Of a stretch of DNA of 19,523 nt, positions 3,627 through 19,523 are shown piece after piece (positions within the stretch are counted from its first letter, which is position 1; every line of letters starts with the position of its first letter). The translations under genes were made by a program, and so were the position numbers. The notes beneath the pieces were generated by a model. The model did no database searches. It was given only the letters and a program-made list of their open reading frames with translations, and was not told the origin of the DNA. Source of the DNA: a virus (Duplodnaviria > Heunggongvirae > Uroviricota > Caudoviricetes); the IMG/VR virus record IMGVR_UViG_2740892229_000016; one strand, given 5' to 3'.

Positions 3627-3907
3627 GAGATTGTGGTGCTTTTTGTGGGAGTCATCCACTTACGCACTTTGTTTTGCCATGCCAGCAGTTAGCTTCTGCT
3701 GTAAAACTATTCATGCAGCAAACCTGCACTTCACCACAATGGTTAGCATACTTTTCCTGATTAAGATTTTGCCAAATATGCTAGCCATTGTTTCATGTAT
3801 TGGACCTCCTTACTTTTTATTAAAGAGATCCAATATTCACTACTCTGTCCGTATCTCTACTCAGGCATCAGCCTTCTTCGTTATCGTATACAGACGAGCG
3901 ATGAATT

Positions 3908-4123
3908 TTAATCAGTAATGATGACATTTGCTGCTGCAGGACCTTTAGCACCACTCTCTATAGAGAAGGTAACCTTTTGACCTTCAAATAAGGTTCGATA
4001 ATTATCATTCTGAATCGCAGAAAAATGCACAAACACATCTTTACTACCATCAACAGGAGAAATAAAGCCGAAACCTTTATCAGCGTTAAACCATTTTACT
4101 AAACCAGTCATTTTATTTGACAT
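3908..4123 (-). CDS. cspB: cold-shock protein CspB-like
   Basis: 71 aa [45 protein letters not shown]...; CspA family. Confidence 0.9.
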
Positions 4124-4423
4124 TCTACATTCCTTAACTTGAGCCTTTCGGCATAAATGGTTTGCATAACAGAAACGACTTCGTACTTAATTGGAGAGAC
4201 TCAAAGAAGGAATAAGTGAATAACACCTGAAATGAGAACTGCTTTAGTAAACTACTTCGTATATCGTCTGTTCTTCAAACCGACGCAATCATTAACGCAT
4301 AGTTGAACATATGAAGCAATGTTTATTTTAGACATCCAGCCATCTTCAACCCCATCAAAAAACTATAGCTTTCTTCAGGAACGTGTGTATAGTGCGCCAA
4401 GTTATCAGTATTAAGGAATTTTT

Positions 4424-4636
4424 TTGTCCCGTAAAATGACAGGAATTGTCAAAACCTTTGACGGCAAAAGCGGCAAGGGTCTTATCACCCCATCCGATGG
4501 TCGTATCGATGTCCAGCTTCATGTTTCAGCGCTCAATCTCCGCGATGCAGAAGAAATTACCACCGGATTACGCGTGGAATTTTGCCGGATAAATGGTCTG
4601 CGTGGCCCTTCAGCTGCCAATGTTTACCTTTCATGA
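4424..4636 (+). CDS. cspF: CspA-family paralog (CspF/CspH-like), TTG start
   Basis: 70 aa (M)[36 protein letters not shown]...; AAGGAA SD 5 nt before the TTG. Divergent from cspB. Confidence 0.8.
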
Positions 4637-4690
4637 GCTATATTAAAGCTTTAATTTCAGGCCCCATCGGATCACACATGGAGAGTTTTT

Positions 4691-4780
4691 ATGAATAACC
4701 CCGTCTGTCTTGATGACTGGTTGATTGGCTTTAAAAGCTTATGCTGTACTTTGGCCGTAATAGCTCTGCTAATAATATAA
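4691..4780 (+). CDS. candidate 29-aa hydrophobic small protein
   Basis: GGAGAG SD 5 nt before ATG; [29 protein letters not shown]. Sequence signal only. Confidence 0.25.
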
Positions 4781-4925
4781 TAAGCAGACTCATTGTGTTT
4801 AGGGACATTGTACTGGAAGAAAACATTTTAAACATCAGGCAAATAACCAAGTCACCAGCTAAATAATAAGTTAACAGACATGAGTCCCGGGATGAGATTC
4901 AACATTACCATTGCCCCATTTAAAG

Positions 4926-9699: not shown

Positions 9700-11130
9700 T
9701 ACCCTATGAATGGATATGCACTCAACCGAATCGATCTTGGTTTCAATCTTTTTTATCGGGATCAGGCTTCTTTTTAGGTAACTTCGGGGGCTTAACTTGC
9801 TGATGACTTTGCGTTCGGCGCGTAAGCCAGGGATGGTCAGCTTTAGGTTTAACATAGTATTTTGAGCGTAAATCAATACGGGCATTATCCACTCGTTCAT
9901 GGACACTCTTTTCATCATCCAGTGGTATAGGCTCCGGGCCATCAACATACTTTTCCCAGCCCAGCGCTTTCCCGTCATACAGAACGTTAATTTCACCGTC
10001 AAAGTTCTCGCATACAGTAACAACCGAATGCCTAAGTCGATATCCCCGGCCCTCACTGCGTACCTGAAACGCACTGCTTTTGTACTGGAAAGTGAGATTT
10101 TTAGACAGAACGCGCTTCGCCTGTAGGCTGAAGATATAACCCAGTTCCTCTTCAGAATGGTGCACATCAAGATGAGCATTATCAGTAGTACGAGGCGACG
10201 TAGCGAACCGGTTGTTATAGGCTTCAATAAAGGTCGGCAACCATGCATTTGCTGTTTCAATATCACTGATATTCTGAAGCCGCATTTCTTTGACCAGCCT
10301 GTCCTGTAGTGTCTGATTGGCGCGCTCTACCCGCCCTTTTGCCTGCGGGCTGTTGGCATGGATTGGCTCGATGCCCAGTGTCTTTATCGCACGAGTGAAC
10401 TGGGTCAGCTCACCTTCCCGCTCTGGGTTATTTACCCTGAATATACTGTGTCTATCAGAGTAGAGAGCGAGCGGTACGCCATGATCATTAAGGTAACCCC
10501 GGAGGGTTTCCATGTAAGCCCGGGTTGTTTCAGCAGGCACAAAACGCAACGCCATCAACGCACTGGTGGCATCATCAATGAAAACGATCAGTGTACATCT
10601 GGGGCCTCGATTTTCAAACCAGTCATGAGGTGAGCCATCAATCTGGATCAGTTCACCGTAAGATGGTCGTCGCATGCGGCGTTGATATATACGGGCAATT
10701 TTACGACGGCGTTCACGCCATAACCCCTCTTCTATCACCCACTTTCTGAGAGTTTCAACGGATAAAGATAAACCGTGTATCTCGCGCAATTTTTCGCACG
10801 CAAACGTAGGTCCAAAATCAGCGTAACGGCCTTTGAGGAGTGAAATTACTGTTGCTCTGAATTCAGTAGAAAAGGAATTATTAGGACGCTTTCCACGTCG
10901 GTGGGAAACCAGACCAGAAGGCCCTTCATTTCTATACCGTTGCACCAGACGTTTAACCTGCCGAATAGAAATGCCAATGCGTGCCGCAGCTTGTTCCTGA
11001 ATAATCTGAAGTCGGTGGAGTTCCTTATGACTCATCGTAACAGTCTCTTTGATCATGAAAAATCCCCCAGAGAATTGTCTGGGGACATTTTAGAATGGTT
11101 CAAAGGGGACATTACAGCTTGGTGTTAACA
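9700..11130 (-). mobile_element. insertion sequence carrying a single-ORF DDE transposase (IS481-like architecture); ends not resolved
   Basis: Transposase ORF with no phage context, in a position where K-12 Qin has no such gene. I could not find convincing terminal inverted repeats, so the boundaries are approximate. Confidence 0.5.
9743..11056 (-). CDS. DDE transposase (N-terminal HTH plus rve integrase core)
   Basis: 437 aa. HTH segment GISIRQVKRLVQRY; D/D/E candidates in IQIDGSPHDW, LYSDRHSIF and GRVERANQTLQ. Alternative ATG at 11035 (MSHKEL...). Confidence 0.8.
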   Translation of the reverse strand: MIKETVTMSHKELHRLQIIQEQAAARIGISIRQVKRLVQRYRNEGPSGLVSHRRGKRPNNSFSTEFRATVISLLKGRYADFGPTFACEKLREIHGLSLSVETLRKWVIEEGLWRERRRKIARIYQRRMRRPSYGELIQIDGSPHDWFENRGPRCTLIVFIDDATSALMALRFVPAETTRAYMETLRGYLNDHGVPLALYSDRHSIFRVNNPEREGELTQFTRAIKTLGIEPIHANSPQAKGRVERANQTLQDRLVKEMRLQNISDIETANAWLPTFIEAYNNRFATSPRTTDNAHLDVHHSEEELGYIFSLQAKRVLSKNLTFQYKSSAFQVRSEGRGYRLRHSVVTVCENFDGEINVLYDGKALGWEKYVDGPEPIPLDDEKSVHERVDNARIDLRSKYYVKPKADHPWLTRRTQSHQQVKPPKLPKKKPDPDKKD

Positions 11131-11390
11131 ATAGCCTGCTTCTCCGTGCCTTTCGGCACGTAAGAGGCTAACCTACATGTGTCTAGCATGAAATTGGCCT
11201 CAGATTAATGTTAAGCGTCTTGCAGGACGCGTAATGTTAACTGGGGCTTTTCTCTATCTGCCGTTGGTGTCCATGCCCGAGGCAGATAGCCTCAAGCACC
11301 CGCAGTCATTCTACTTAACTAAGATTTCCCCGCAAACCGTTTTTGTCCAGCACAGTAAATATCCAACTAAACCAATGGAGTTCGCTGTAT

Positions 11391-13538: not shown

Positions 13539-14504
13539 TTATCCCCTGAAACCAGGCGGAATTTCTGTATCCGGTTCAGAAATATGATTCACACAACGCT
13601 GTACAGGTGAACGTCCCAGGCGGATGACCAGTTCGTCCCATTTTTCGCGGAGTTTTGACGGGCTCATGATGTTTTTTACCCAGAATTGATCTCGCTGTAC
13701 CCGACCAAACATTTCGCAAATTTGTCTGTGGCTTCTGCCATCCAGCATCCGCATTGTGCGCACGTCATTGGCCCAGGCTGTCCAGTTAGGCTCTTTTGGT
13801 CGCATGATCTCTCCATCGTCGCTGGCAGCCTGTTCGTAAAGGTTCACGATCCGCCCCCAAATCCACTGCGCACACGCCAAATCCTCCCTGCTACCCCACT
13901 GGCGTTTTTTCGCACTAAACACAACCGCGTCGGGGTTCCGGGTTAAAAAATCCTGTTCAGCGGTCTGCGGGTCCGGTTGCGAAGCTTCCGGACGAAAAGT
14001 GTTTTTATTCTCTGTAGTAATCTCTGTTGTATTCTCTGTAAGATCATCAGGCCATTTTGACCCGATGACATTGGGTCGTTTTGAACCAATGGAGCGTTTC
14101 ATTTTGACCTCTTCCATCGTGTCATTTTGACCTGATGGAGCGGCGCATTTTAAACCGATGGATTCGCTCAATTTGTCACCATCTAAAAGCTCGCTCCCGT
14201 AGTTGATCGTGTAGAAATTGGTCATATCGCGCTTTGATTTATTGAGCTTTTCACAACGCAAAAGCCCCAGCGTTTTCAGACTTGCAAACGCGCGCTTTAA
14301 CGTTGACTCTGACCAGAATGGGAACTGTTCCAGCCATTGTTCCGTTGTGTTGTAAATCCAGCGAACACCATCACATTCCATGCCGGAATTGGTATCTCTC
14401 AACCAGTAATGCAACTGCTGCAACACAATGGCTTCATTTAAGCCAATCTTCATCGCAAGCTGTGTGTTTATAACCAGTGGGCGTTCAGCAAAAAGAAGGC
14501 TCAT
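13539..14504 (-). CDS. phage replication initiator (O-like replisome organizer)
   Basis: 321 aa from the ATG at 14504 (the track ORF begins at a TTG at 14558). N-terminal DnaD/replisome-organizer-like segment; the coding sequence contains a direct-repeat iteron array, as in lambda O/ori. Confidence 0.7.
   Translation of the reverse strand: MSLLFAERPLVINTQLAMKIGLNEAIVLQQLHYWLRDTNSGMECDGVRWIYNTTEQWLEQFPFWSESTLKRAFASLKTLGLLRCEKLNKSKRDMTNFYTINYGSELLDGDKLSESIGLKCAAPSGQNDTMEEVKMKRSIGSKRPNVIGSKWPDDLTENTTEITTENKNTFRPEASQPDPQTAEQDFLTRNPDAVVFSAKKRQWGSREDLACAQWIWGRIVNLYEQAASDDGEIMRPKEPNWTAWANDVRTMRMLDGRSHRQICEMFGRVQRDQFWVKNIMSPSKLREKWDELVIRLGRSPVQRCVNHISEPDTEIPPGFRG
14053..14163. repeat. iteron array (5 direct repeats, about 23 bp period), candidate prophage origin
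   Basis: Five copies of CATTTTGACC-(N)-GATGGAG-like units starting at 14053, 14077, 14100, 14123 and 14146. Adjacent TCTCTGT x3 at 14009-14039. Confidence 0.55.
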
Positions 14505-15006
14505 AATTCCATCCAGCTTTTTGTTGGTATTGCTGTCGATACGCAAGTTTGAAAGCAATTGCTTTTTCTATAAGTTCGTCAGTTTCACGATCCACTACGG
14601 CAGGATCAGCAAAAAGCAGTCCGGACTCCACCACATCGCCATATTCTTTGTTTAACCCGGCGATCATGTACGTGATGCTTTTTCCGTCACTAATTTCACG
14701 ATACAACCTGAAATCATTAATCCGAATAGCCTCCATAATTGCAGGCACTAGCGCCGTGAACTTTTCACGCTTATCCCTGGTGTCGATAGCCTTCCAGCGT
14801 TCGAATATCTTCACTCGATTAACGCCAAGCGCTCGCTGATCAACCGCGCCACCTTCATCTGTGACACGCTGAACATCGATGTTCGGGCGCTCTTTCAAAG
14901 CCCAGAATGCTTCAGTGATTAATATCGTCGCCTGCTCCTGTGTCATTCCTGGTCGACATATCCAGGCATCCAGAGCCTCACGAGCCTGTTCAGGAGTGAT
15001 TTTCAT
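14485..15006 (-). CDS. hypothetical early-region protein (173 aa), cII/YdaT position
   Basis: First gene downstream of the cro-like dicC on the same strand; overlaps the O-like start by about 20 nt. Family assignment by position only. Confidence 0.55.
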   Translation of the reverse strand: MKITPEQAREALDAWICRPGMTQEQATILITEAFWALKERPNIDVQRVTDEGGAVDQRALGVNRVKIFERWKAIDTRDKREKFTALVPAIMEAIRINDFRLYREISDGKSITYMIAGLNKEYGDVVESGLLFADPAVVDRETDELIEKAIAFKLAYRQQYQQKAGWNYEPSFC

Positions 15007-15217
15007 TGTTCAACCGCCCCGCCCGCTTCGTCTTACGATATTCGTCATAAACCTTGGGATCATACAGAAGCTCGCCGCCAGATGCCTCCTGTAGACGCAT
15101 CGCGCGACCTTCAGGAACCAGCTCTTGCCATTGAGAAACAGCAGATGGGTCAACGCCAGCAGCTTTCGCTACTTTGGCTTTCGTACCGTAAAAATTAATT
15201 ACGTCTGATTTAAACAT
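14990..15217 (-). CDS. dicC: Cro-like repressor DicC homolog (75 aa from internal ATG)
   Basis: MFKSDVINFYGTKAKVAKAAGVDPSAVSQWQELVPEGRAMRL...; HTH; strong SD GGAGGTG. Divergent from dicA. Confidence 0.7.
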   Translation of the reverse strand: MFKSDVINFYGTKAKVAKAAGVDPSAVSQWQELVPEGRAMRLQEASGGELLYDPKVYDEYRKTKRAGRLNNENHS

Positions 15218-15230
15218 CGCACCTCCAATA

Positions 15231-15244
15231 TTGAGTTTTCTCAA
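15231..15244. promoter_or_regulatory. candidate DicA operator in the dicC/dicA divergent promoter region
   Basis: TTGAGTTTTCTCAA; the same 13-mer recurs at the dicB-operon promoter. Confidence 0.4.
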
Positions 15245-15294
15245 TGCTAATCACTCAAGGAATCTCAAGTCAAGGGTTATTAAGATATCTAAAT

Positions 15295-15702
15295 ATGAAC
15301 GAGAAAACTTTAGGTCAACGCATTAGAGAAAGACGTAAGCAGGTAGGCTTAAGTCAAAACGGTTTAAGCAAAGCTGCTGGCGTATCTGGCTCATCAATTT
15401 CATTATGGGAAAGTGACCATACAGCCCCGCGCGGGCAAAATTTGCATCGCCTCGCCGAGGTATTGCAATGTTCACCAACCTGGATACTGTTTGGCGACGA
15501 GGACAAAACACCAGCTCCCCCTGTTTCACTCGATAGTGCCTTAGACTTATCGGAAGATGAGTTAGAGATGCTGCGTTTGTATCGCGCACTTCCTAAATCA
15601 GAGCAACAAGCACAACTCAGCGAACTCCGCGCCCGCGTTGAGAATTTTAATCGCCTGTTCACCGAGCTATTAGAGGCTCGCAAACGCAACAAGCATCAAT
15701 AA
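15295..15702 (+). CDS. dicA: cI-like HTH_XRE repressor DicA homolog (135 aa)
   Basis: MNEKTLGQRIRERRKQVGLSQNGLSKAAGVSGSSISLWESDHTAPRGQNL...; the C-terminal half looks like a dimerization domain. An alternative leaderless ATG is at 15244. Confidence 0.75.
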   Translation: MNEKTLGQRIRERRKQVGLSQNGLSKAAGVSGSSISLWESDHTAPRGQNLHRLAEVLQCSPTWILFGDEDKTPAPPVSLDSALDLSEDELEMLRLYRALPKSEQQAQLSELRARVENFNRLFTELLEARKRNKHQ

Positions 15703-15766
15703 TCATCCCTTCACAAAATTTTAAAGCCTTACATTTCAATGTATTGGCTTTATCTTGCGCCAATAC

Positions 15767-15818
15767 TTGAGTTTTCTCACCAAAAAACCTTGACGAAAAA
15801 TAATGAGAAAACTAAATT
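15767..15818 (+). promoter_or_regulatory. dicB-operon promoter (TTGACG-N17-TAAATT) flanked by inverted operator copies
   Basis: -35 at 15790-15795, -10 at 15813-15818. TTGAGTTTTCTCA at 15767-15779 and its inverted partner TGAGAAAACT at 15804-15813. Confidence 0.5.
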
Positions 15819-15902
15819 ACCTCCATCAAGACACCGCACGGTGTTCTCAGCAAACAGTTCCGCTACCCCGCTACCCCGGCGTTAAGGGGAAATGAGGTCA
15901 GC

Positions 15903-16055
15903 ATGGATACTATCGATCTTGGCAACAGCGAATCTCTGGTATGTGGCGTGTTCCCCAACCAGGACGGTACGTTCACCGCGATGACGTATACCAAAAGCAA
16001 AACGTTTAAAACTGAAGCTGGCGCGCGTCGCTGGTTAACCAGAAACACTGACTGA
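15903..16055 (+). CDS. ydfA: YdfA-like small protein (50 aa)
   Basis: Hand translation MDTIDLGNSESLVCGVFPNQDGTFTAMTYTKSKTFKTEAGARRWLTRNTD; GAGG SD. First gene of the dicB operon. Confidence 0.65.
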   Translation: MDTIDLGNSESLVCGVFPNQDGTFTAMTYTKSKTFKTEAGARRWLTRNTD

Positions 16056-16186: not shown

Positions 16187-16384
16187 NNNNNNNNNNACCT
16201 TGCCGAAGGCGAAGAAGCTCTCAGCTTCAGTGAGTTTAAACAGGCACTCAGAATAAGAATGTGCTCTCACAATGACGCGGAGCACAAATATGAGAAGCAA
16301 AATCAGACCGCAGAAAATTTTGTTCTGGAACCCGGAGAAACGCTTTTCAAAATTCCCGTTACGTGCCCCATTTGCGGTTTTACA

Positions 16385-16705
16385 TCAGAAGAACTTGACG
16401 ACTCCTGTAACAATCAGGAAACAACCAAGTATGTCGAAGATGATACCGAGTGCGCACGAAGAACGATTATATCCACGAGTCCAAACTCCAGGACCAATAA
16501 ATCTCACTTTGAGAGGGTGATTAATCCACTCCCCCAAACCAATAAAAAAGATGCCGGAGGACAAAAAACCCAATGGAACAACGGGATATCTGTCAAAAAA
16601 AGACGTTCCATTAAAGACAAACAACGCAGCGCCAACAACTGTAAGCGCTTTATACCAGTAATCAATTTTCATGTTCTTAAGCGGATTTATTGGTGGTTGC
16701 GACAT
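16385..16705 (-). CDS. candidate 106-aa membrane protein antisense to the dicB operon
   Basis: Three hydrophobic helices (ALTVVGAALFVF, GFLSSGIFFIGLG, CALGIIFDILGCFLIVTGVV). The overlapping plus-strand ORF is polar and low-complexity, typical of an antisense read. SD is 13 nt from the ATG, which is far. Confidence 0.3.
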   Translation of the reverse strand: MSQPPINPLKNMKIDYWYKALTVVGAALFVFNGTSFFDRYPVVPLGFLSSGIFFIGLGEWINHPLKVRFIGPGVWTRGYNRSSCALGIIFDILGCFLIVTGVVKFF

Positions 16706-16759
16706 TGCTTAATGAATCCTTAAAACTGTGGTGATTTTAAGGATACCACCTCGCCTGAC

Positions 16760-16927
16760 GTGGTTAAAAGCAGGCACACAACACGAAAGCGCACGGCGAA
16801 GTTCGTCTCACTGTACGGTGTCGTTAAATTTAATTCGACCGTGCGCTTCCGGTTGTGGCAACCCGCAAAATGGCGCGGCGGTAAGTATGGCGGGGTTATT
16901 CCTTCCCCGTTGAGGACACCGGGTTGT
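16760..16927 (+). CDS. YdfC-like ORF (GTG start), truncated by an N-gap
   Basis: (M)VKSRHTTRKRTAKFVSLYGVVKFNSTVRFRLWQPAKWRGGKYGGVIPSPLRTPGC. The same sequence recurs in three more variant copies upstream of dicF, each with a stop or frameshift in this frame. Confidence 0.3.
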
Positions 16928-17070
16928 NNNNNNNNNNGCGAAGAGAAGCAGCTCTCTGATAACCAGAATTTACATGAAAAATACTTCCTGGAATTAATGA
17001 ACATCATTAATAAAGGATTTGGCTTGTTAATGAAAAAGAAAGGGATTCGAATAGCTCCCCNNNNNNNNNN

Positions 17071-17297
17071 ACGAAGAGAAGCAGCTCTCTGATAACCAGG
17101 ATTTACATGAAAAATACTTCATGGAATTAATGGACATCATTAATAAAGGATTTGGCTTGTTAATGAAAAAGAAAGGGATTCGAATAGCTCCCCTTGAAAA
17201 TCATTTTACAGCGAGCAGTATTAATTCCTGTGATTTAAAGCATCACACATCCGATGGGAAAGTTGAATCAAACAACAAAATATCAATTAATCATTAA
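17071..17297 (+). CDS. hypothetical ORF, 5'-incomplete at an N-gap (...MELMDIINKGFGLLMKKKGIRIAPLENHFTASSINSCDLKHHTSDGKVESNNKISINH)
   Basis: Open from the gap to a TAA at 17295-17297. A near-identical variant copy at 16938-17060 is truncated by the next gap. Confidence 0.25.
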
Positions 17298-17522
17298 TTT
17301 ATTCACAGGTGAGGTAGAGTGCGTGCGCCGGACACGGATAAGAATCCGGCACTGACAGTTTACTGAAAAGGATATATCCCTGAAAAGTCAGGGCATAACN
17401 NNNNNNNNNAGCTAAGGTTGGTAATTAAGGAGTTCTCCACGGGTGAGGTGGAGTGCGTGCGCCGGACATGGGTGAGCATCCGGCACTGACAGTTTACTGA
17501 AAGGATATTTCCATGAAAAGTC

Positions 17523-17990
17523 AGACCATAACGCGAAAGCGCACGGCGAGGTAGCTGGTTCATAGATAGCCTGTCGTTAAATTTTCGTCGACCGTGCGCT
17601 TCCGGTTGTGGCACTCCGCGAAATGGCGCGGCGGTAAGTATGGCGGGGTTATTCCTTCCCCGTTGAGGACACCGNNNNNNNNNNACGAAAGCGCCCGGCG
17701 AAGTTAGTCTCTCTGTATAGGTCGTCGTTAAATTTAATTCGATCGTGCGCTTCCGGTTGTGGCAATCCGCGAAATGGCGCGGCGGTAAGTATGGCGGGGT
17801 TATNNNNNNNNNNGCGAAAGCGCACGGCGAAGTTCGTCTCTCTGTAGGTAGTCGTTAAATTTAATTCGACCGTGCGCTTCCGGTTGTGGCAATCCGCGAA
17901 ATGGCGCGGCGGTAAGTATGGCGGGGTTATTCCTTCCCCGTTGAGGACACCGGGTTGTCAGGTTGACCATACGCTTAAGTGACAACCCCG
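17523..17990 (+). repeat. three consecutive variant copies of the structured element upstream of dicF, separated by 10-N gaps
   Basis: Copies at about 17523-17674, 17685-17803 and 17814-17990 share GCGCACGG...CCGTGCGC and GGGTTGTCA...TGACAACCC hairpins. Only the last is contiguous with dicF. Confidence 0.5.
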
Positions 17991-18013
17991 CTGCAACGCC
18001 CTCTGTTATCAAT

Positions 18014-18071
18014 TTTCTGGTGACGTTTGGCGGTATCAGTTTTACTCCGTGACTGCTCTGCCGCCCTTTTT
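18014..18071 (+). ncRNA. dicF: DicF small RNA (cell-division inhibitor sRNA)
   Basis: TTTCTGGTGACGTTTGGCGGTATCAGTTTTACTCCGTGACTGCTCTGCCGCCCTTTTT matches my recollection of DicF, including its 3' terminator hairpin. Lies just upstream of dicB. Confidence 0.85.
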
Positions 18072-18240
18072 AAAGTGAATTTTGTGATGCGGTGAATGCG
18101 GCTGAGCGCACGCGGAACAGTTAAAACCAAAAACAGTGTTATGGGTGGATTCTCTGTATCCGGCGTTAATTGTTAACTGGTTAACGTCACCTGGAGGCAC
18201 CAGGCACTGCATCACAAAATTCATTGTTGAGGACGCGATA

Positions 18241-18429
18241 ATGGAAACGTTATTACCAAACGTTAATACGTCTGAAGGTTGTTTTGAAATTGGTGTCACT
18301 ATCAGTAACCCAGTATTTACTGAAGATGCCATTAACAAGAGAAAACAAGAACGGGAGCTATTAAATAAAATATGCATTGTTTCAATGCTGGCTCGTTTAC
18401 GTCTGATGCCAAAAGGATGTGCACAATGA
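18241..18429 (+). CDS. dicB: DicB cell-division inhibitor (62 aa)
   Basis: METLLPNVNTSEGCFEIGVTISNPVFTEDAINKRKQERELLNKICIVSMLARLRLMPKGCAQ; GAGGA SD. Confidence 0.9.
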   Translation: METLLPNVNTSEGCFEIGVTISNPVFTEDAINKRKQERELLNKICIVSMLARLRLMPKGCAQ

Positions 18430-18503
18430 ATTCAGCATTTGTGCTTGTTCTGACAGTTTTTCTTGTTTCCGGAGAGCCAGTTGATATTGCAGTCAGTGTT
18501 CAC
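18426..18503 (+). CDS. ydfD: YdfD-like, copy 1 (5' part, truncated by an N-gap)
   Basis: MNSAFVLVLTVFLVSGEPVDIAVSVH...; its ATG overlaps the dicB stop (ATGA). Confidence 0.6.
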
Positions 18504-18513
18504 NNNNNNNNNN

Positions 18514-18627
18514 TGTATTTACTGAAGATGCCATTAACAAGAGAAAACACGAACGGGAGCTATTAAATAAAATATGCATTCTTTCAATGCTGGCCCGTTT
18601 ACGTCCGATACAAAAAGGATGCTGGCA
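18514..18627 (+). other. diverged second copy of the dicB 3' half
   Basis: Encodes ...VFTEDAINKRKHERELLNKICILSMLARLRPIQKGCWQ, with several substitutions relative to the 18241-18429 copy. Begins directly after an N-gap. Confidence 0.5.
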
Positions 18628-18890
18628 ATGAATACAGCATTTGCACTTGTTCTGACAGTTTTTCTTGTTTCCGGAGAGCCAGTTGATATTGCAGTCAGTG
18701 TTCACAGGACAATGCAGGAGTGTGTGACTGCAGCAACCGAACAGAAAATTCCCGGTAACNNNNNNNNNNCGTTCACAGGACAATGCAGGAGTGTGTGACT
18801 GCAGCAACCGAACAGAAAATTCCCGGTAACTGTTACCCGGTCGATAAAGTTATTCACCAGGATAATATCGAAATCCCGGCAGGTCTTTAA
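18628..18890 (+). CDS. ydfD: YdfD-like, copy 2; coordinates inflated by an N-gap and a duplicated 60-nt overlap
   Basis: MNTAFALVLTVFLVSGEPVDIAVSVHRTMQECVTAATEQKIPGN-[gap]-CYPVDKVIHQDNIEIPAGL. Removing the gap and the repeated 60 nt gives a 63-aa ORF. Confidence 0.6.
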
Positions 18891-18982
18891 AACAGTTCCG
18901 TAATAAACATCCGATTTCATTCTTATATGCCAGCAATGGCAGGGATTTGTTCACCCTTAAATCTGTAATGAGGTAAAACAAA

Positions 18983-19264
18983 ATGAGTAAAGTCTTTATT
19001 TGCGCCGCCATTCCGGACGAACAGGCAATAAAGGAAGAAGGTGCAGTCGCTGTAGCCACTGCCATTGAAGCTGGCGACGAACGCCGTGCTCGAGCAAAAT
19101 TTCACTGGCAATTCCTGGAACATTATCCGGCTGCTCAGGACTGCGCTTATAAATTTCTTGTTTGCGAGGATAAACCCGGTATACCCCGCCCTGCCCTCGA
19201 TTCCTGGGATGCTGAATATATGCAGGAAAACCGCTGGGATGAGGAGTCTGCTTCCTTTGTCCCG
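18983..19264 (+). CDS. hypothetical protein at the ydfE position, copy 1 (truncated by an N-gap)
   Basis: MSKVFICAAIPDEQAIKEEGAVAVATAIEAGDERRARAKFHWQFLEHYPAAQDCAYKF...; follows ydfD. Confidence 0.5.
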
Positions 19265-19349
19265 NNNNNNNNNNTATCCGGTTTCATTCTTATATGCCAG
19301 CAATGGCAGGGATTTGTTCATCCTTAAATCTGTCATGAGGTTAAAACAA

Positions 19350-19523
19350 ATGAGTAAAGTCTTTATTTGCGCCGCTATTCCTGACGAACTGGCAACAAGG
19401 GAAGAAGGCGCTGTGGCTGTAGCCACAGCCATTGAAGCTGGCGACGAACGCCGTGCTCGAGCAAAATTTCACTGGCAATTCCTGGAACATTATCCGGCTG
19501 CTCAGGACTGCGCTTATAAATTT
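19350..19523 (+). CDS. second, diverged copy of the same protein (runs off the window end)
   Basis: MSKVFICAAIPDELATREEGAVAVATAIEAGDERRARAKFHWQFLEHYPAAQDCAYKF; the upstream 75 nt is also a variant of 18908-18982. Confidence 0.5.
   Translation, partial: MSKVFICAAIPDELATREEGAVAVATAIEAGDERRARAKFHWQFLEHYPAAQDCAYKF

Follow-up and report, generated by a model that had tools for sequence, protein, structure and literature searches.

A non-coding stretch upstream of dicF in lambdoid prophages carries a covarying RNA hairpin and is probably the structured leader of the DicF precursor

The small RNA DicF controls cell division, metabolism and, in EHEC, virulence, and many pathogenic strains carry several copies of it. 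Cleavage and termination of the operon transcript determine the DicF and DicB output of a prophage. The stretch upstream of dicF raises the question of what is selected there, a protein or an RNA. In the DNA analysed here, a 19,523-nt viral sequence (Caudoviricetes; IMG/VR record IMGVR_UViG_2740892229_000016; hereafter the window), a preliminary description of positions 16760-17990 proposed a structured RNA, on the premise that four variant copies keep two strong hairpins and a YdfC-like reading frame is intact in one copy only. This premise was partly wrong, and the conclusion of a structured non-coding RNA was largely right. Our best explanation, with a probability of about 0.6, is that the element serves as a structured, untranslated 5' leader in the DicF precursor. 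In the dicBF (ydfABC-dicF-dicB-ydfD) early-left operon of Qin-type lambdoid prophages, it occupies the spacer that separates dicF from the promoter-proximal small genes. This leader consists of a covarying hairpin (H3) on the transcribed strand, then a conserved three-hairpin domain (H4-H6), and lastly an unpaired, invariant linker running exactly up to the 5' end of DicF.

The window contains four related stretches (~16766-16927, 17516-17674, 17685-17803 and 17814-18014; repeat family D1, 144 nt, 67-96% gapless identity), but these do not form a tandem array. Runs of exactly 10 N (16928-16937, 17061-17070, 17400-17409, 17675-17684 and 17804-17813) join short fragments from different prophages, and the fragments between the gaps overlap each other once mapped onto a complete genome. 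Copy 1, the piece 17071-17399 and copy 2 match E. coli strain 2013C-4991 at 100% identity at ~0.966, 1.259 and 1.579 Mb, respectively. Since three fragments match loci up to ~600 kb apart in one complete genome, the tandem layout is an assembly artefact, in which the draft assembly has strung alleles from different prophages side by side. None of the loci retrieved for comparison carries two cores on one strand. The individual alleles are nevertheless genuine. The copy 1 region is 100% identical to a locus (L001 3610-4340) that runs on into H6 and DicF, the copy 2 piece is 100% identical to 2013C-4991 at 1,578,866, where ydfC is annotated upstream and the element is unannotated, and the copy 3 allele is found at 100% in complete genomes, for example E2855. 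The window copies are real sequences, namely paralogous, overlapping alleles of one locus, which can be used for comparison and are not a repeat array. Draft scaffolds can present the alleles of different prophages as tandem repeats, which is a trap for annotation.

The reading frame was traced through these alleles. When anchored on CGA-AAG-CGC, it is open up to the gap in copy 1, carries stops at codons 7 and 12 in copy 2 and TAG at codon 11 in copy 4, and is shifted by an indel in copy 3, in agreement with the earlier statement that it is intact only in copy 1, itself cut by a gap. Its description as YdfC-like did not hold up, since BLASTP of the element translation against K-12 YdfC (b1573), with E values up to 100 allowed, produced no alignment, and at the DNA level the element corresponds to K-12 sequence past the ydfC stop. 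In the K-12 locus (L122), ydfC stops at 2542, the element aligns to 2663-2882 and dicF begins at 2883, leaving 340 nt between the end of ydfC and the start of dicF. The gene ydfC is likewise annotated upstream of the element in another locus (L235), and in two complete-genome loci PGAP called ydfC upstream and nothing over the element. Among 69 distinct leaders, whose lengths range from 188 to 207 nt and in which 1-nt indels are common, the frame is open to ~codon 56 in 13-14 (~20%), and stops occur in every plus-strand frame. A kept frame with indels in multiples of three, as in a conserved protein-coding gene, was thus not found.

It is very improbable that the element encodes a protein, ydfC-like or otherwise and in either orientation, with an intact gene in some prophages and a pseudogene in others. 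Neither the GTG-initiated ORF that is open in copy 1, nor a frame -1 without stops in 23 of 70 variants, nor the minus-strand ORFs annotated over the region in some phage records outweighs the low fraction of open frames and a search of Pfam and NCBIfam in which the ORF translation, lacking similarity to YdfC, matched no family either. Moreover, H5 is polymorphic for a 1-nt indel that divides the population into roughly equal halves and would shift any frame on either strand, the indels in the H3 interior are not multiples of three, and the supposed start codon sits within a promoter-like motif of the opposite strand. The element is non-coding. The stretch does not represent frame decay in a ydfC-like gene, and the true ydfC is a separate gene further upstream. 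[quoted passage not shown] Chance ORFs over this G+C-rich structured RNA are sometimes called as genes, a second trap for annotation.

The motif that includes the 'GTG start' at 16760 is the conserved junction motif (AGG)ATACCACCnnGCCTGAnGTGGnnAAAAGnCAGGC (16740-16775, minus strand), which overlaps the first 16 nt of the region. Read on the minus strand, it holds an extended -10 promoter sequence, TGGTATCCT, for the divergent ORF 16385-16705. Minus-strand ORFs of 50 aa or more, with many unrelated sequences among them, begin ~27-39 nt away from the motif in 74 of 77 distinct contexts; TATnCT, with TGG before it, is conserved in 74/75 contexts, accompanied by TTnAC-like -35 sequences and a downstream AAGGA box. 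This arrangement suggests that the junction motif acts as a minus-strand promoter. On the plus strand, three small hairpins (CTCCAC/GTGGAG, CCGGA/TCCGG and CTGAC/GTCAG) are predicted by both MFE and centroid folds in a K-12-type spacer at 17435-17524, which aligns to the K-12 spacer (L122 2557-2662) at 97%. A variant of the latter two hairpins lies at 17306-17392, and between the two window versions (family D3) the stems are kept and the loops are variable.

Evidence for a selected RNA structure comes from H3. The first hairpin of the preliminary description, GCGCACGG/CCGTGCGC, belongs to an irregular ~22-bp stem with CACAAC/GUUGUG as its closing base. The sole complete H3 in the window is that of copy 1 (16777-16857, plus strand; -34.0 kcal/mol, z -4.68, 0/200 shuffles fold as well), which comprises the CACAAC/GUUGUG base, a bulged A, CG/CG, an A-C mismatch, AAGCGCACGG/CCGUGCGCUU, CGAA/UUCG and a variable interior. 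On the same strand, copy 2 (17527-17610; -33.0 kcal/mol, z -3.46) is of the K-12 type, with the base CAUAAC/GUUGUG containing one U-G pair, and copy 4 (17815-17888; -25.4 kcal/mol, z -3.08) has lost its 5' CACAAC arm to the gap 17804-17813. The hairpin is therefore strong in three copies, as had been claimed for all four, but not in copy 3 (17686-17761, plus strand; -16.2 kcal/mol, z -0.11). There the 5' base arm is lost to the gap, the stem is weakened to GCGCCCGG/TCGTGCGC, and the arms GCGCCCGG / UCGUGCGC contain one C-U mismatch and one G-U pair. This weakened form is a common allele, indicating that a perfect H3 is not indispensable.

Among the four copies, the stem differences are one-sided (wobble or mismatch) and none is compensatory. 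Compensatory changes, sought at the suggestion of the preliminary description, appeared once more distant prophages were added, with 6 of the 18 pairs changed on both sides in related prophages. This count is based on 26 hand-checked homologues in one register, because a permissive H3 regular expression picked up chance and reverse-strand matches as well. The covariation score is 0.262, compared with 0.141 in shuffles (0/500 reach 0.262) and no more than 0.10 with slid partners, and 98.1% of cells are paired. The cells include 23 G-U versus 6 A-C, favouring the DicF strand. When arms were swapped, cognate arms gave -19.1 kcal/mol versus -10.9 for non-cognate ones, and 0 of 10000 permutations were as good. 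Nucleotide diversity (pi) is 0.07-0.09 in the H3 arms versus 0.25 in the H3 interior. H3 is a selected, conserved RNA structure with compensatory changes. The non-coding nature of the stretch and the selection on the RNA structure of H3 agree with what was first proposed. The stem, with 6+2+10+4 pairs interrupted by bulges, spans the approximately two helical turns of an RNase III site. Hairpins of the H3 type also immediately precede other prophage sRNAs and a tRNA-Arg.

The second hairpin, GGGTTGTCA/TGACAACCC, corresponds to the arms of H6 (17952-17960/17980-17988). The claim that all four copies keep it failed, since it is complete in copy 4 only, copy 1 retains its 5' arm alone, and copies 2 and 3 end before it. 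In copy 1, the H4-H5 region and the H6 5' arm (16858-16927, plus strand) are cut by the N10 gap at 16928. The RNAalifold consensus of 63 distinct sequences places H6 (17952-17988) together with H4 (17894-17909) and H5 (17922-17940) in a three-hairpin domain (17883-17997, plus strand), which can be closed by pairing of GUUGUGGC (17883-17890) with GCUGCAAC (17990-17997) and whose single-sequence fold has -44.9 kcal/mol and z -2.29. In predicted folds, GUUGUG can pair either with the domain-closing arm or with CACAAC at the base of H3. Between this domain and DicF lies the linker (17998-18013, plus strand), UCAAU|UUUCUGG, which ends at the DicF 5' end as placed from the K-12 annotation. The linker is unpaired in the domain folds, A/U-rich and invariant, as in a maturation site of RNase E, the enzyme on which cleavage at the DicF 5' end depends according to the literature.

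The element is present in all 98 distinct DicF loci from IMG/VR. These loci, retrieved by an exact DicF pattern and hence biased towards close relatives, are 88-98% identical overall. A degenerate DicF pattern run over genome contigs yielded 8 loci only, and deep divergence was therefore taken from the junction-motif scan of viral contigs. Across H4, H6 and the long-range stem, whose sequences are very similar, 1 of 30 predicted pairs is changed on both sides (covariation term -0.24 kcal/mol), and this sole compensatory pair sits in the closing stem. H6 is near-invariant elsewhere and is thus conserved.

Such similarity with almost no covariation would also be expected if the DicF-proximal 150 nt (H4-H6 and the linker) were conserved by descent within a recently spread mosaic module, with selection acting on DicF alone and no function for any hairpin except H3. 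A Salmonella DicF-like locus, in which H3 is kept and H4-H6 is absent altogether, points the same way, its sRNA working without the domain. This explanation is unlikely, however, given that an H4-H6 domain of ~92% identity precedes a different sRNA, and follows a different upstream region, in the cdtI, Stx2c and 2H10 phages and Salmonella phage F1055. In some phages H5 is swapped for unrelated sequences that still form a hairpin, and the pi of H6 (0.009) and of the linker (0.002, the lowest measured) is below that of DicF itself and far below that of dicB third codon positions (0.25). The H4-H6 structure is predicted, and its conservation could reflect sequence-specific roles or recent spread.

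The 53-nt form of DicF (18014/18015-18066, plus strand) is identical to K-12 dicF and matches Rfam RF00039 with 76.7 bits (cut-off 48, E 1e-15). The match covers DicF proper only (18015-18066), and the upstream element lies outside the model. Rfam cmscan of 16650-18300 found DicF and a downstream STnc100-like match only, with nothing over the element (16760-18013) at the gathering score or at E up to 10. The stretch belongs to the dicBF transcript, the polycistronic RNA from which RNase E makes the 5' end of DicF (PMC5069750, PMC9438474), and the 3' end arises either through intrinsic termination (53-nt form) or through RNase III (72-nt form) (PMC5069750). The RNase E site at the 5' end is 25 nt past H6. 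The computed 72-nt end, 18085, falls within the 5' arm of a 17-bp stem, AAUUUUGUGAUGCGGUG / CACUGCAUCACAAAAUU, that closes the dicF-dicB spacer domain (18078-18222, plus strand, outside the originally described range; -55.9 kcal/mol, z -5.44). This stem, at the RNase III-dependent end, carries the same UUGUG/CACAA motif as the leader, and its domain gives a sub-threshold STnc100 match (35.7 bits, cut-off 47). Both the mapped 5' end and the 72-nt 3' end are outside the two hairpins. In the published work on dicBF and the RNase III maps examined, no cleavage is mapped inside H3-H6; the main texts of the maps cite DicF and report no site in H3 (PMC6212723, PMC5371410). A simple scan, which also missed the DicF terminator and the extended -10, returned no terminator-like site at H3 or H6, and by direct reading the two hairpins are followed by CCGGUUGUGG and CCGCUGCAAC, respectively, with no terminator-type U run.

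These positions suggest that the leader hairpins may serve as processing punctuation. They would prevent the A/U-rich RNase E site from pairing and keep its spacing from a stable stem constant. RNase III may cut within H3 or within the UUGUG/CACAA closing stems, which would leave a 5'-monophosphate end favouring RNase E, and the hairpins may also shield the 3' end of the upstream fragment. A role of the hairpins as the DicF processing substrate, as originally put forward, is plausible.

Two other functions were weighed. The leader might be a cis-acting antitermination or anti-pausing RNA like HK022 put, which acts via the beta-prime zinc-binding domain of RNA polymerase; it would modify the polymerase to read through the DicF terminator into dicB and ydfD. 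Because dicB is located behind the DicF intrinsic terminator, read-through is needed, and the prophage, a lambdoid one in which no N gene is recognised, has this RNA of several hairpins in its early-left operon. In addition, GGCGGUA in the leader is identical to the 5' arm of the DicF terminator, and GGCGCGGCGG pairs with the 3' arm in MFE folds, but the local terminator hairpin would win kinetically over such long-range pairing. With the element far from the promoter, no sequence similarity to the HK022 region holding putL/putR and no experimental hint in the published work examined, this function is improbable. Still less credible is a trans-acting by-product, in which the released leader fragment would be a sponge like the prophage anti-sRNA AgvB. 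CACAACA (16777-16783) equals the GcvB R1 seed target consensus quoted for AgvB (PMC4104026), and a second CA-rich copy, GCUGCAAC or, in other phages, CACCACAAC, is situated immediately 5' of the sRNA. A match of 7 nt carries little weight, however, CACAACA is base-paired in the most stable fold, and AgvB is located elsewhere in the prophage, downstream of PR' (PMC4104026).

The processing-leader reading can be extended, tentatively and with rather low confidence, to a wider class. H3-type hairpins and UUGUG/CACAA-closed multi-hairpin domains might be undescribed modular RNA 'punctuation' cassettes of lambdoid early-left operons, placed directly 5' (in Qin also 3') of DicF, UGCUGUGUGUAGUC-type sRNAs, STnc100/PasD-like RNAs and even a tRNA-Arg, where they would guide RNase III and RNase E in freeing such RNAs from the transcript. 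A switch could then arise from the two possible partners of GUUGUG, CACAAC upstream and CCACAAC downstream. The conserved, partly covarying leader offers targets at the step of cutting and termination, namely the H3 stem, H6 and the invariant linker.

RNase III processing hairpins are known in polycistronic early transcripts of phages, including the T7 early region and the lambda N leader. H3 resembles them in its irregular stem of ~20-22 bp with bulges and its position between early-operon cistrons; to our knowledge, it has no sequence relation to the T7 or lambda sites. The dicBF operon of K-12 Qin (Faubladier et al. 1990, via PMC5069750 and PMC9438474) is the same locus, and the positions of the DicF 5' end and of both 3' ends (53 and 72 nt) agree exactly with those in K-12. 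The leader secondary structure, the covarying hairpin and the modular relatives are not described in PMC5069750 and PMC9438474. In copy 1 of the window, unlike in K-12, a divergent ORF that has a promoter-like motif of its own takes the place of ydfC and of a part of ydfB. Compared with STnc100/PasD (Rfam RF02076; bioRxiv 10.64898/2026.05.13.724894), the domain after DicF (18064-18273) and its SfV and phiES15 equivalents score 34-41 bits, below threshold. These STnc100-like domains share with the leader a GUGAAUGCGGCU...CCnGGAGGCACCnGG layout and UUGUG/CACAA closing stems, whereas the element proper (16760-18013) has no Rfam match with E values of up to 10 allowed. An identity with AgvB, which has CACAACA in common with the leader, was rejected on its location (PMC4104026), and an identity with HK022 put was rejected because comparison with the HK022 immunity region gave only chance words of 8-11 nt. 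The leader and HK022 put (PMC9378689) are both RNAs of several stems from early operons of lambdoid phages without N, but the leader is much longer than put (~70 nt, two stems) and is not promoter-proximal. The sRNAs MicL, CpxQ and SroC, which RNase E cuts out of mRNAs in a stem-loop-guided maturation (PMC9438474), are similar to DicF in their release from a longer transcript and in having an A/U-rich unpaired cut site beside stable stems and a 3' end formed by an intrinsic terminator. In contrast to these sRNAs, the structures upstream of DicF are much larger (~240 nt, at least four hairpins) and recur as separable modules before several unrelated prophage sRNAs and a tRNA.

The window is E. 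coli-type lambdoid prophage DNA (Qin/dicB-type), in which Rfam matched DicF (18015-18066, +, 76.7 bits), two cspA-type thermoregulators (997-1382 and 3892-4284, both -, 112.8 and 158.8 bits) and the sok antitoxin RNA (11130-11301, -, 104.1 bits). Its right-hand 3.3 kb (16187-19274) consists of short fragments chained by runs of exactly 10 N, all nine of which lie in this interval (starting at 16187, 16928, 17061, 17400, 17675, 17804, 18504, 18760 and 19265). L001, the locus of complete genome 2013C-4991, is colinear with window 14001-16034 (99.7% identity) and 16197-16927 (100%), and every piece after 16927 maps back onto the same L001 interval: 17516-17674 to 4179-4334, 17685-17803 to 4196-4312 and 17815-18503 to 4197-4885. 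The pieces 18515-18759, 18771-19264 and 19275-19523 mutually overlap and represent dicB/ydfD/exonuclease-side alleles, 94-100% identical to L001 4695-5373. The four variant copies reported in the preliminary description of the element at 16760-17990 (~16766-16927, 17516-17674, 17685-17803 and 17814-18014) are real sequences. In 2013C-4991, the 100% matches to copy 1, to piece 17071-17399 and to copy 2 lie at ~0.966 Mb, 1,258,664 and 1,578,866, respectively, in three separate prophages that each have a dicB, and copy 3 matches loci of other complete genomes at 100%. Since the pieces overlap on L001 and the copies match separate prophages, the copies are paralogous alleles from different prophages, placed end to end by the draft assembly or scaffolder, and the tandem layout was discarded; two cores on one strand were found in no fetched locus. 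Any 'repeat' within 16187-19274 is an assembly product, and the copies are usable for comparison though they form no array. Fragments 16938-17060 and 17071-17297, 97% identical, are pieces of a hypothetical-protein gene that replaces ydfB/ydfC in a third prophage type; the window holds a 58-aa ORF of it (17121-17297), and the L236 annotation gives the gene as a hypothetical protein of 124 aa.

The YdfC-like frame formerly read in the element did not withstand comparison. In K-12 MG1655 (L122), the element aligns at 2663-2882, between ydfC (2324-2542) and dicF (2883-2935); the counterpart of window piece 17410-17674 is 2557-2821 (97%). In PMC5069750, this stretch is already given as a long untranslated region. 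BLASTP of the translated ORF against YdfC gave no alignment, Pfam and NCBIfam searches returned no match, and PGAP called ydfC upstream and no gene over the element. Of 69 distinct leaders (the untranslated spacer 5' of DicF, 188-207 nt long), 13-14 keep the frame open as far as about codon 56, and 31 reach a stop at codon 7. A 1-nt indel in the loop of H5, a small hairpin after the first hairpin (H3), is present in roughly half of the population and absent from the other half, so any frame on either strand would shift, and indels in the H3 interior come in lengths not divisible by three. Sequencing errors do not account for the stops in copies 2 and 3, since the same alleles recur at 100% in finished genomes. 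The element is thus non-coding, and a protein-coding gene is not favoured by the data. A ydfC-like gene losing its frame is ruled out by the position downstream of ydfC in K-12, the lack of YdfC similarity, and the indels and stops; our conclusion is that the element holds no gene that could decay. Minus-strand 'hypothetical proteins' are annotated over the leader/sRNA region in deposited phage records (L132 1545-2000, L232 484-1056 and L234 745-939), and are probably spurious, since homologues differ by indels that shift the frame.

The flagged range opens within a different kind of element, 16740-16775 on the minus strand, which covers its first 16 nt. Of 77 distinct contexts, 74 have a minus-strand start codon at ~27-39 nt from the motif of this element, ATACCACCnnGCCTGAnGTGGnnAAAAGnCAGGC; the spacing is fixed at ~35 nt, and the ORFs starting there are unrelated to one another. 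The minus-strand reading, TGG-TATnCT (74/75 contexts) with a TTnAC-like -35 and then an AAGGA box, suggests an extended -10 promoter signature for divergent "moron" genes. The GTG at 16760 previously taken as a start codon falls within this promoter-like motif. In the window prophage, ydfC and the ydfB 3' end have given way to the moron cassette; the protein of its divergent ORF (16385-16705, -) has 106 aa and belongs to no Pfam family.

Two strong hairpins had been described in all copies. The first (GCGCACGG/CCGTGCGC) lies at the core of H3, a longer and irregular stem with the layout 5' CACAAC-A-CG-A-AAGCGCACGG-CGAA ... UUCG-A-CCGUGCGCUU-C-CG-GUUGUG 3'. It is strong in copy 1 (16777-16857, -34.0 kcal/mol, z -4.68), copy 2 (17527-17610, -33.0 kcal/mol, z -3.46) and copy 4 (17815-17888, -25.4 kcal/mol, z -3.08), but weak in copy 3 (17686-17761, -16.2 kcal/mol, z -0.11) because of one C-U mismatch and one G-U pair; in copies 3 and 4 the 5' CACAAC arm is cut off by the preceding gaps. 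The second hairpin, H6, is complete in copy 4 only, copy 1 having a gap in the middle of the 5' arm and copies 2 and 3 ending before it. Stem differences among the four copies are one-sided throughout, so the window alone holds no compensatory evidence.

Across more distant prophages, H3 is a selected RNA hairpin, as had been proposed for the element. Searching with the exact DicF pattern gave 98 distinct IMG/VR loci, all containing the element (88-98% identity), and a conserved junction motif immediately 5' of H3 brought in another 90 distinct contexts, where the stem sequences of the equivalently placed hairpins differ. The arms are GAAAGCGCACGG/CCGUGCGCUUCC in E. coli, UGAAGCGCAUU/AAUGCGCUUCA in phiES15, GCACACUCC/GGAGUGCG in Salmonella, GCUAAG/CUUAGC in SfV and GAUGAGAGCAUU/(C)AGUGCUCUCUUC in F1055-type phages, and CA(C/U)AAC ... 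GUUGUG flanks all five types. For 26 homologues aligned in one register, 98.1% of H3 cells are paired and both sides changed in 6 of 18 pairs; the covariation score is 0.262 versus 0.141 ± 0.010 after shuffling (0/500 shuffles reach 0.262) and ≤0.10 with partners slid. The inner arms of ten hairpin types pair at -19.1 kcal/mol with cognate and -10.9 with non-cognate partners, none of 10,000 permutations being as good. G-U cells outnumber A-C cells (23 vs 6), placing the structure on the DicF strand. H3-type hairpins lie directly 5' of DicF (via the H4-H6 domain), UGCUGUGUGUAGUC-type sRNAs, STnc100-like domains and tRNA-Arg(UCU), as expected for processing punctuation; in IMG/VR contigs L177 and L193, the hairpin abuts the tRNA-Arg(TCT) 5' end, in the place held elsewhere by DicF or another sRNA.

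Between H3 and DicF, the RNAalifold consensus of 63 distinct sequences predicted H4 (CCGCG/CGCGG), H5 (GGGG/CCCC, inside a short CGGU/ACCG stem), H6 (17952-17988, z -2.56) and a stem closing H4-H6 (GUUGUGGC/GCUGCAAC). As only 1 of 30 pairs changed on both sides (in the closing stem, C-G in Qin vs U-A in cdtI, Stx2c and F1055), this structure counts as predicted, not demonstrated. H5 is swapped for GGGU...ACCC in F1055 and CUGGGG...CUCCAG in another group, both hairpin-forming. Nucleotide diversity supports purifying selection on the leader: it is 0.07-0.09 in the H3 arms, 0.04 and 0.06 in the H4 and H5 regions, 0.009 in H6, 0.002 in the linker to DicF and 0.016 in DicF (where the retrieval pattern fixed part of the sequence), and 0.25 both in the H3 interior and at dicB third codon positions. 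Constraint on H6 and the linker is strong. The H4-H6 domain (~92% identity) also precedes a different terminator-type sRNA, behind a different leader, in cdtI, Stx2c and 2H10 phages, which argues for a unit in its own right; it is also present in Salmonella phage F1055, and the DicF-like locus of the Salmonella chromosome has H3 but no H4-H6. Hitch-hiking conservation of H4-H6 and a put-like antiterminator are possible but less likely readings, neither of them favoured by the data.

GUUGUG is predicted to pair either with upstream CACAAC, closing H3, or with downstream CCACAAC/GCUGCAAC, closing H4-H6, the H3 pairing being preferred in full-length folds. CACAACA, the GcvB R1 target consensus as quoted for the prophage anti-sRNA AgvB (PMC4104026), occurs at 16777-16783, and the complementary GUUGUG (17883-17888) and UUGUGAUG (18082-18090) resemble GcvB R1 itself. 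A GcvB-mimic sponge is not favoured by the data, and these matches may have arisen by chance among simple stems rich in CA and GU. The leader GGCGGUA is the same as the DicF terminator 5' arm (17894-17926; 18028-18038), and leader GGCGCGGCGG pairs with the terminator 3' arm in MFE folds. Terminator-type sRNA candidates with a DicF-like hairpin (GGCGGNANCAG...) and a different 5' region ((A)UUGCUGUGUGUAGUC) hold the DicF position in many lambdoid prophages (L217, L218, L219, L148, L166, L195, L200, L161, L170 and others; L131 ~1708-1770; L132 ~1620-1680).

The annotated DicF 5' end (18014, UCAAU|UUUCUGG), made by RNase E from polycistronic dicBF RNA (PMC5069750, PMC9438474), lies 25 nt past H6 and 16 nt past the closing stem, within the invariant unpaired linker. 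The alternative 3' end, cut by RNase III to give a 72-nt form (PMC5069750), is at 18085, on the 5' arm of a stem of 17 bp formed by 18078-18094 and 18206-18222 (+, z -5.44 for the domain), in agreement with its reported origin; this stem has a UUGUG/CACAA motif, as in the leader stems. The mapped DicF ends coincide with a predicted accessible site and a predicted duplex site. In the literature consulted, including RNase III maps (PMC6212723, PMC5371410), no cut is mapped within H3-H6. The hairpins of the leader might hold the RNase E site in place and keep it accessible; RNase III may enter at H3 or at the closing stems, yielding a 5'-monophosphate, and the upstream fragment may gain stability from the stems. 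The dicF-dicB spacer (18064-18273, +) and the SfV and phiES15 regions (L131 1558-1773, L133 1595-1780) give sub-threshold Rfam STnc100 matches (34-41 bits, cut-off 47), and share a hairpin with a compensatory change between CCUGG-AGGCA-CCAGG in the window and CCGGG-AGGCA-CCCGG in the two phages.

In summary, a non-coding, structured RNA upstream of DicF stands, but the decaying YdfC frame given as its reason and the four tandem copies do not. The known picture of the dicBF operon is left in place and nothing in it is overturned; covariation support for one leader hairpin (H3), strong constraint on H6 and the linker, and modular recurrence of leader elements before other prophage small RNAs are modestly new additions to it.
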